The notes: a model not told the origin generated them from the sequence alone. Positions 16,191-16,749 are shown, numbered from the stretch's first letter. The stretch is DNA of 30,348 nt from Candidatus Parcubacteria bacterium (GCA_023135505.1 JAGLTA010000010.1:1-30348); one strand, 5' to 3'. Numbers and translations are program-made.

Positions 16191-16749
16191 TAATTTAGGC
16201 AAGCGGATAGCCGCCACGCTCAATTTTTTTAAAATAAACAAATTTGTCATTCCGAACTTGTTTCGGAATCTGTCATTGATTATCGCTAAATTATAATCAG
16301 ATAAGAAAATTTTGGTTTATAATTTTATTAATCTTAATCATAATATAGCGAATCACAAGCACAGACACTGAAATAAATTCAGGGTGACAATATTTTATAA
16401 TTCATAAAAGTCTTTGTTTTAAAAAATTTGAGCGTGGAGGAAAGTCCGGACGCGATTAATTTTAAATTTTAAAATTAAAAAAGGATAGCGGGTAATCCCC
16501 GTCATTTTAATCAATGAGGTGCGAACAGAGACGCTGATACGCGCAAGCGTTGAAGCGCCCTTCGGGGCGAGTTTTAAGGAAACTTAAAAATTGAAACGGC
16601 TAAATCCTTATCCGCGCGCAAGGTCGTATTCAGCAATTTTGCTGTTTGAACCGCTTGAGGTTGATGGCAACATCAATCCTAGATAGATGGCTATCTAAAA
16701 TTATTTTTAATAATTTTAACAGAATCCGGCTTATAGTTTGCCTGAATTA
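16191..16749 (+). ncRNA. rnpB: RNase P RNA with a greatly extended P3 helix
   Basis: GAGGAAAGTCCGG and ACAGAATCCGGCTTAT conserved regions; P1 16191-16204/16736-16749; P2 GATAGCC/GGCTATC; P3 CCACGCTCAA/TTGAGCGTGG; ends approximate. Confidence 0.95.
16245..16389. mobile_element. Palindromic element, family A copy 2, inside rnpB P3
   Basis: 145 bp, colinear with 7999-8143. Confidence 0.88.

Follow-up and report, generated by a model that had tools for sequence, protein, structure and literature searches.

Insertion of a TGTC-headed REP dimer in helix P3 of the RNase P RNA gene of a Candidatus Parcubacteria bacterium

CGTC-tagged REPs are defined by a CGTC head, with TGTC and CCTC as variants, a stem of 8-9 bp beginning with an A-T pair, a loop of 4-5 nt and a 3-bp tail; they are mostly extragenic, frequently form inverted dimers around a conserved spacer of 20-100 bp, have no dedicated transposase flanked by the repeats, and include as a class RPE-4 and RPE-6 of Rickettsia and dRS3 of Neisseria (Di Nocera, De Gregorio & Rocco 2013, PMC3733652). 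REPINs are REP doublets that form hairpins and are mobilised by RAYT (Bertels & Rainey 2011, PMC3116915; PMC3337134). An excerpt of Lui et al. (2021, PMC8172020) describes the RNase P RNAs of CPR bacteria as often missing the Rfam thresholds and as showing "large extensions of helices"; the same excerpt gives the L15 GGU motif as missing in 23 of 35 CPR genomes, and this motif is not a defining feature for the clade. In heterocyst-forming cyanobacteria, helix P12 of the RNase P RNA gene, rnpB, contains STRR heptamer repeats (Vioque 1997, cited in an extract of PMC2858038). Helix extensions and STRR are already published; what is new at the locus described here is the class of element, a REP dimer with neither target-site duplication nor linked transposase, and its probable heptamer tail. 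Our literature search found no paper joining Rickettsia palindromic elements to rnpB, a precedent named in an earlier note on this DNA; searches linking REPs with RNase P RNA returned one unrelated review only, a search for MITEs in connection with RNase P or tmRNA brought up nothing of relevance, and the Bcheck and P finder papers contain no discussion of such rnpB inserts.

The window analysed, a 30,348-nt stretch of Candidatus Parcubacteria bacterium DNA (GCA_023135505.1 JAGLTA010000010.1:1-30348), belongs to the genome (G000) of an ultra-small cold-seep bacterium, assembled to 0.92 Mb in 165 contigs and 82.5% complete. On its plus strand, at 16191-16749, lies a gene for bacterial class A RNase P RNA, placed by a match to RF00010 together with 5' strands mapped by hand: 559 nt with the insert described below, about 390 nt without it. 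The match, at 16398-16749, scores 72.1 bits (E = 7e-22) in a permissive Rfam scan of 16100-16850, and is the only rnpB match in the genome (E = 2e-22). The RF00010 gathering score is 100 bits, above that of this gene, and an Rfam scan of the window at gathering threshold found a tRNA alone. The score is low because the model cannot bridge an insert of ~169 nt and puts the 5' strands of P1-P3 in the wrong place: its 5' portion is forced to align with A/T-rich sequence, whereas direct reading shows the true strands to lie upstream. Annotation pipelines relying on the gathering score will miss the gene. Its promoter, TTGACA and a TG-extended TATTAT separated by a 17-nt spacer (16157-16185, plus strand), is the best site of the region, with a score of 11/12, and implies that transcription begins near 16191; the sequence upstream of rnpB, promoter included, is also kept in the orthologues of G001 and G002, the two congeners.

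Read by hand from the sequence, P1 consists of 16191-16204 and 16736-16749 (14 pairs) and P2 of 16206-16212 and 16689-16695 (7 pairs). The basal stem of P3 joins 16214-16238 to 16413-16437, both on the plus strand, through 24 pairs and a U.U at 16224/16427, as found by sequence reading and by RNAfold; run on the whole 559 nt, RNAfold recovered P1 and P3, and P3 as a whole (16214-16437) folds at -68.4 kcal/mol, with z = -9.3 against shuffles. The 5' strand of P4 with its conserved region (GAGGAAAGUCCGGAC, 16438-16455, plus strand) agrees letter for letter with the RF00010 consensus, and the 3' strand with its own (ACAGAAUCCGGCUUA, 16719-16735, plus strand) likewise matches it; the universal stretches GAGGAAAGUCCGG, ACAGA and ACAGAAUCCGGCUUA are all present with high posterior probability, at 16438-16455, ~16527-16533 and 16719-16735. 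The coordinates that the earlier note gave for gene and P3 are therefore correct, and its description of a core intact apart from the insert holds for P1, P2, the P3 base, P4 and the conserved stretches alike. The L15 GGU motif, partner of the tRNA 3' CCA, is absent, the aligned position being UUU, and the same is true of G001. The specificity domain (16455-16620) is strongly reduced, again as in G001, with a very short P12 and no evident P13/P14; there is an A/U-only hairpin after P5, and the small specificity domain contrasts with the oversized P3.

At the tip of P3 sits a 145-nt element (16245-16389, plus strand; family A of the earlier note), recognised by its genome-wide matches and by sharp ends: in an alignment of 30 copies with their flanks, it begins with TGTCA exactly at 16245 and ends with TGACA exactly at 16389, which bears out the ends and the length first assigned to it. 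A merged blastn search in G000 gave 41 places matching the element, of which ~35 are complete or almost complete copies, and this is the commonest palindromic repeat of the genome; the slightly wider segment 16232-16392 matches 7986-8146 of the window at 81%, and has 59 matching places in G000. The free copy already noticed at 7999-8143 (plus strand) does exist, 82.8% identical over its full length and lying between open frames 6962-7759 and 8214-8921; a partial copy, comprising the left end module and ~40 nt, was found by similarity at 23230-23298 (plus strand). The ~34 other copies in G000 are all intergenic, that in rnpB being the sole one found inside a gene. RNAfold presents the element as a long imperfect hairpin continuing from P3 (16244-16390, ~147 nt). 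Rfam also reports miRNA and leader families on it (E 0.1-5), hits that a long A/U hairpin attracts by chance. A promoter-like CTGTCA-N16-TATAAT (10/12) lies inside the element at 16270-16297 on the rnpB strand, and could start transcripts within P3. A second repeat family in the window (13711-13751, 17223-17269 and 17332-17378) also ends in ...GAATGACA / TGTCATTC, the TGTC head being common to both families.

Each end of the element is a 28-nt module made up of a TGTC head, an 8-bp stem, a 5-nt loop and the tail CTG. The left module (16245-16272, plus strand), found by pattern match, has the stem ATTCCGAA/TTCGGAAT and the loop CTTGT; the right module (16362-16389, minus strand) is inverted, and its stem has a single mismatch, at A16367, a position that is C in contigs from other copies of the element; this module was recognised by direct reading, the strict pattern missing it. 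G000 has 54 modules. With the first head base left free in the search pattern, all 54 proved to have the TGTC head; the loop is of 5 nt in 54/54, the tail is CTG in 50 and the stem is fully paired in 53. The stems come in four variants whose two sides covary (ATCCTGAA/TTCAGGAT, ATTCCGAA/TTCGGAAT, ACCCTGAA/TTCAGGGT and ATTCTGAA/TTCAGAAT), the second pair being either T-A or C-G. A reversed-pattern control gave zero matches. Across eight genomes of the family, modules number 54 in G000, 34 in G001, 14 in G002, 17 in G003, 152 in G004, 5 in G006, and 1 each in G005 and G007.

To judge from these sequence features, the element fits the published CGTC-tagged class, as an inverted dimer of TGTC-headed REPs around a conserved spacer of ~90 nt, with a REPIN-like architecture. 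Its original description as a mobile palindromic element stands inasmuch as it is a dispersed palindromic repeat, but head, stem, loop, tail and dimer arrangement make it better classed as a CGTC/TGTC-tagged REP dimer than as a generic mobile palindrome or MITE. With CGTC-tagged REPs it shares the TGTC head, an 8-bp stem starting with A-T, the 5-nt loop and 3-bp tail, inverted dimers with a spacer, a mostly extragenic distribution and the lack of a flanked transposase. It differs from them in its host, which belongs to the CPR/Patescibacteria, in having a copy inside a ribozyme gene, whereas the intragenic REPs of PMC3733652 are in protein genes, in that its tagged heads face outward, and in the heptamer tail that accompanies some copies; the places open to CGTC-type REPs would thereby extend from protein genes to a catalytic RNA. 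Like REPINs (PMC3116915; PMC3337134), it has two inverted REPs and a spacer, predicted to form one hairpin as ssDNA or RNA, nearly all modules being in doublets, and it shows no target-site duplication.

Modules of this kind are also arranged in other ways. In G004, of another genus of the same family, many of the 152 modules stand ~40 nt apart in BIME-like clusters, in both orientations (e.g. C4:5359-5625 and C11:10205-10442), and the 145-nt dimer element is absent. The exact 33-nt left module occurs as single copies in a Saccharibacteria MAG (L069:316-348) and in a Gastranaerophilales MAG (L070:761-793), where it adjoins an apparent tRNA gene on the opposite strand; these copies could mean either that the REP class is widely distributed or that contamination arose in binning.

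The means by which the element moves was sought in several ways. Although terminal inverted repeats are present, a DDE-type (cut-and-paste) MITE was rejected: no consistent target-site duplication was found in 31 copies, 22 having none and the other 9 chance A/T-rich matches of 1-4 nt. G000 does encode a RAYT-like Y1 protein of 183 aa (C60:1082-1633, minus strand; L090), which scores 28.8 bits with Pfam Y1_Tnp and 58.9 bits with NCBIfam REP_Tyr_transpos, below the 80-bit cut-off of the latter. Its ORF is flanked by two GTAG-headed hairpins (L090 1674-1775), with no TGTC module nearby, and such an ORF was not found in the other seven genomes of the family, including the module-bearing G001, G002 and G004. 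A RAYT as mobiliser is thus not supported, the ORF being GTAG-flanked and not co-distributed with TGTC modules; unlike REPINs, the element has no cognate RAYT that we could find. The ORF and its GTAG hairpins resemble a small REPtron belonging to another class of REP, found in G000 only among the eight genomes. Neither TnpB nor an IS110 transposase was found in the 82.5% of G000 that is assembled, and the lack of a dedicated transposase matches the corresponding feature of CGTC REPs. As to the choice of target, a preference for hairpin loops or palindromes was also rejected: the median energy of the duplex formed by the flanks is -7.6 kcal/mol, versus -8.8 kcal/mol at 600 control sites (one-sided Mann-Whitney p = 0.91), and strong complementarity was seen only at the rnpB and C153 sites.

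That the element came into rnpB by insertion is indicated by the relatives. Of 41 genomes in the class, 39 have an RF00010 hit for rnpB, and one only (G025) has two. In G001, of the same genus, the syntenic rnpB is 380 nt long, scores 107.9 bits and has a plain P3 of 45 nt; downstream of P3 it is identical to that of the window at 297 of 314 positions (94.6%). P3 is ~12-20 nt in the four other genera of the family and 84 nt in G002. The empty site of G001 together with the short P3 of the other genera identifies the P3 element as an insertion, as the earlier note had proposed in suggesting that sister genomes be checked for the empty site. The upstream flanking genes of G000 and G001 are ~86% identical, so the two are different species; on this comparison of sequences, the element appears to have inserted after the split from G001. 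The element family itself predates the genus, since full-length elements, 74-83% identical, are present in both G001 and G002. No TGTC module was found inside rnpB in 35 relatives, four pattern matches there being native helices, and two exact-pattern scans of JGI metagenome contigs revealed no closer relatives.

The inserted unit is probably larger than the element. Immediately beyond it, at 16391-16413 (plus strand), are three heptamer units, TATTTTA, TAATTCA and TAAAAGT, followed by CT, which contain a side hairpin (16393-16409, RNAfold) and are homologous to the 3' flanks of the copies at C33:1070 and in C62. The local alignment score with the C33:1070 flank, which is one unit longer, is 18, whereas none of 5000 AT-rich control 45-mers scored above 17, and the score with the C62 flank, 16.4, is above the 99.9th percentile of the controls. 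The sequence homology suggests that the heptamer tail was probably part of the inserted unit, which would make the insert ~169 nt and the pre-insertion P3 ~55 nt, near that of G001; the element of 145 nt is as first described, but the insert size equated with it should probably be enlarged by the tail. Several different repeat families, on G000 contigs C22, C29, C32, C68, C110, C111, C117, C120, C132, C146 and C157, also have the motif ATTTCGTAATTCA, equal to two heptamer units, 8-25 nt downstream of their '...ATGACA' ends, which suggests either a tail or a target shared by all TGTC-headed elements of this genome. The insertion had been called recent, and this we do not uphold: the rnpB copy shares 88.4% identity with the family consensus and 87.2% with its nearest copy, has the stem mismatch at A16367, and has the split from G001 as its sole age bound; no pair of copies exceeds 95.2% identity.

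Our preferred reading, held with moderate confidence, is that a REP dimer landed in the P3 loop of the only rnpB detected and is transcribed and folded within a ribozyme that still works with RnpA. A non-autonomous palindromic REP dimer, probably with its tail of three heptamer units, would have landed in the apical loop of a P3 that was already a long hairpin of ~55 nt, its tip pointing away from the catalytic core. Some 169 nt of extra RNA would then be transcribed from the rnpB promoter and fold on itself, forming a three-way junction atop the 24-bp P3 stem from the element hairpin (16244-16390) and the small hairpin (16393-16409), while P1, P2, the P3 base, P4 and the conserved core would stay intact and so let the ribozyme work. 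The tip of P3 is peripheral in the structure of bacterial RNase P, which would explain why its extension is tolerated. Transcription through the insert, its functional neutrality and its retention in the mature RNA are what we infer from this arrangement, and as to retention rather than cleavage we would guess, with a modest leaning only, that the insert is kept. The locus would then be a tolerated oddity, in which junk repeats lengthen an arm of a structured RNA.

Cleavage is the reading that competes best, and we regard it as possible though unlikely: RNase III would cut the duplex of P3 and REP dimer as it does an intervening sequence, so that the mature enzyme would contain either two pieces of RNA joined through P1, P2, the P3 base and P4 or one RNA whose P3 has been trimmed. 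In its favour, RNase III removes intervening sequences from 23S rRNA helices without religation and also acts on the Correia-element hairpins of Neisseria transcripts, and reconstitution of M1 RNA from fragments is possible. The genome encodes RNase III (C15:2917-3309, 129.5 bits), a 24-bp A-U stem followed by an imperfect hairpin of ~147 nt is a plausible substrate for it, and REP-dimer hairpins may be either sensitive or resistant to endoribonucleases (Di Nocera 2013, PMC3733652). The element hairpin has, however, many mismatches and bulges, and REP hairpins in mRNAs are usually stable. RNA data might seem to bear on the matter, in that two RNA contigs end at 16435-16437, the border of P3 and P4, and RNA contigs cover only what lies downstream of P3; these ends are explained by branching of the de Bruijn graph at the conserved P4 motif, and so are uninformative about the insert. 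A search of RNA runs for the right-junction sequence listed none.

The resemblance to the 23S rRNA case consists in extra DNA at a helix tip of an essential structural RNA, an extended stem and a host that encodes RNase III; the differences are that the RNA here is that of RNase P and that excision is hypothetical. Taken further, in a reading that we consider unlikely, the REP dimer would act as an intervening sequence whose cutting by RNase III yields a naturally bipartite RNase P RNA, and CPR bacteria would, as a wider pattern, grow and then process 'expansion segments' in all their essential structured RNAs out of REP dimers and heptamer arrays. A bipartite RNase P RNA, if real, would be the first case of a bacterial RNase P ribozyme in fragments. 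Whether kept or cut, the insert offers a natural test of two questions: how far P3 can lengthen, and whether inserts of this kind are processed in bacteria like the intervening sequences of rRNA.

The preferred reading requires a working gene, and the alternative that the insertion has left rnpB a pseudogene or impaired, tRNA 5' processing being carried out by an unassembled second rnpB or by another enzyme, strikes us as very improbable. Incomplete assembly (82.5%), an Rfam score of 72 bits, below gathering, and the absence of L15 GGU could be read in this way. The low score, though, comes from the insert alone, the 94.6%-identical gene of G001 passing at 107.9 bits, and loss of GGU is common in CPR genomes (PMC8172020) and extends to G001. 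No second rnpB was found in the 165 contigs of G000, and among the 41 genomes searched, 39 of which have a hit, two hits were obtained in only one (G025). No PIN_5/HARP protein-only RNase P was found in G000, and rnpA is intact, in an open frame of 135 aa (C78:24025-24348; PF00825, 91.8 bits). Conserved regions and helices are likewise intact, and their changes preserve pairing: 16203-16204 in P1 are GC where both congeners have AU, and pair as G.U and C-G, and the base of P3 differs from that of G001 by one fully compensatory exchange, A-U for C-G. Such lineage-specific changes in P1 and the P3 base, as read from the sequence, would keep the pairing. In addition, a 167-nt contig from an RNA library is 99.4% identical to 16435-16600, so that either this rnpB or that of a near-identical relative is represented in RNA.

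The assembly at the insert was checked against four cold-seep metagenome runs of one study (X1-X4) that hold this stretch, using per-run contigs built by Logan. The right junction is spanned by a 464-nt contig of X2 (16273-16736, 0 differences) and a 432-nt contig of X3 (16273-16704, 1 difference); on the left side are contigs of 106 nt from X2 (16166-16271) and 149 nt from X1 (16111-16259), both with 0 differences, which enter the element by 14-26 nt, less than the 31-nt rule. Depth is 17.8 and 19.1 on the two sides of the element and 46 in a 55-nt unitig (16248-16302) shared with other copies, so that contigs alone leave a count of exactly one element unproven; no empty-site contig was reported among the per-run contigs. 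The assembly here is thus well supported, though not strictly proven to hold exactly one element, and the misassembly that the earlier note had offered as grounds for refutation is opposed by independent contigs, from two to three cold-seep samples, that back both junctions. The least probable reading, a misjoining of rnpB halves through a collapsed repeat with something else or nothing between them in the real locus, draws on the at least 35 repeat copies, on a genome fragmented often at these repeats and on the shared central unitig (depth 46 vs 18-19), but founders on the reproduction of both junctions without differences in separate samples, one 464-nt contig running from inside the element through to P1, on an element shorter than a read pair, on the lack of any reported empty-site contig, and on the two rnpB halves being correctly oriented against the element ends that they abut, from which the presence of an element between the halves already follows.

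With a filled site, the empty site of a congener and a source family of ~35 copies, the locus provides a clean, datable case of the lengthening of a peripheral ribozyme helix. Like the RNase P RNAs described in the excerpt of PMC8172020, that of G000 has a sub-cut-off Rfam score, needed manual refolding, lacks L15 GGU/UGG and has a large helix extension; unlike the extensions there, which in that excerpt are not traced to dispersed repeats, this one has an identified source family and empty site. REP-type repeats would be a concrete cause for the unexplained "large helix extensions" that drop CPR RNase P RNAs below detection thresholds. As with STRR in P12 (extract of PMC2858038), genome-wide repeats lengthen a peripheral helix and leave the core untouched, and here too there is a short heptamer array; the helix, however, is P3, and the main insert is a dispersed palindrome of 145 nt rather than a tandem array. 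True period-7 hairpins, in P12 and in other helices, are found in the relatives G013 and G029.

Repeats have left their mark on other rnpB genes as well. In G002 the 3' half of P3 (L052:1861-1942) matches short dispersed sequences of G002 and G001, with E down to 5e-7, so that repeats have reshaped P3 on more than one occasion in the genus; the specificity domain of this rnpB is strongly different from those of G000 and G001. The rnpB of G029 (L064; G029:C43, reverse strand) has STRR-like period-7 hairpins in P3, after P4/P5, in P9 and in P12, because of which Rfam misplaces its 5' end and scores it at 69 bits; repeats lie both ~230 nt upstream of the RF00010 match and inside it, and the real gene is ~700 nt long. 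In the rnpB of G013 (L063; G013:C37 250-1044), a heptamer hairpin of ~190 nt (unit TCCAAAx) follows P5 and a second repeat hairpin occupies P12, the true 5' strand of P4 lying ~250 nt upstream of the Rfam match.
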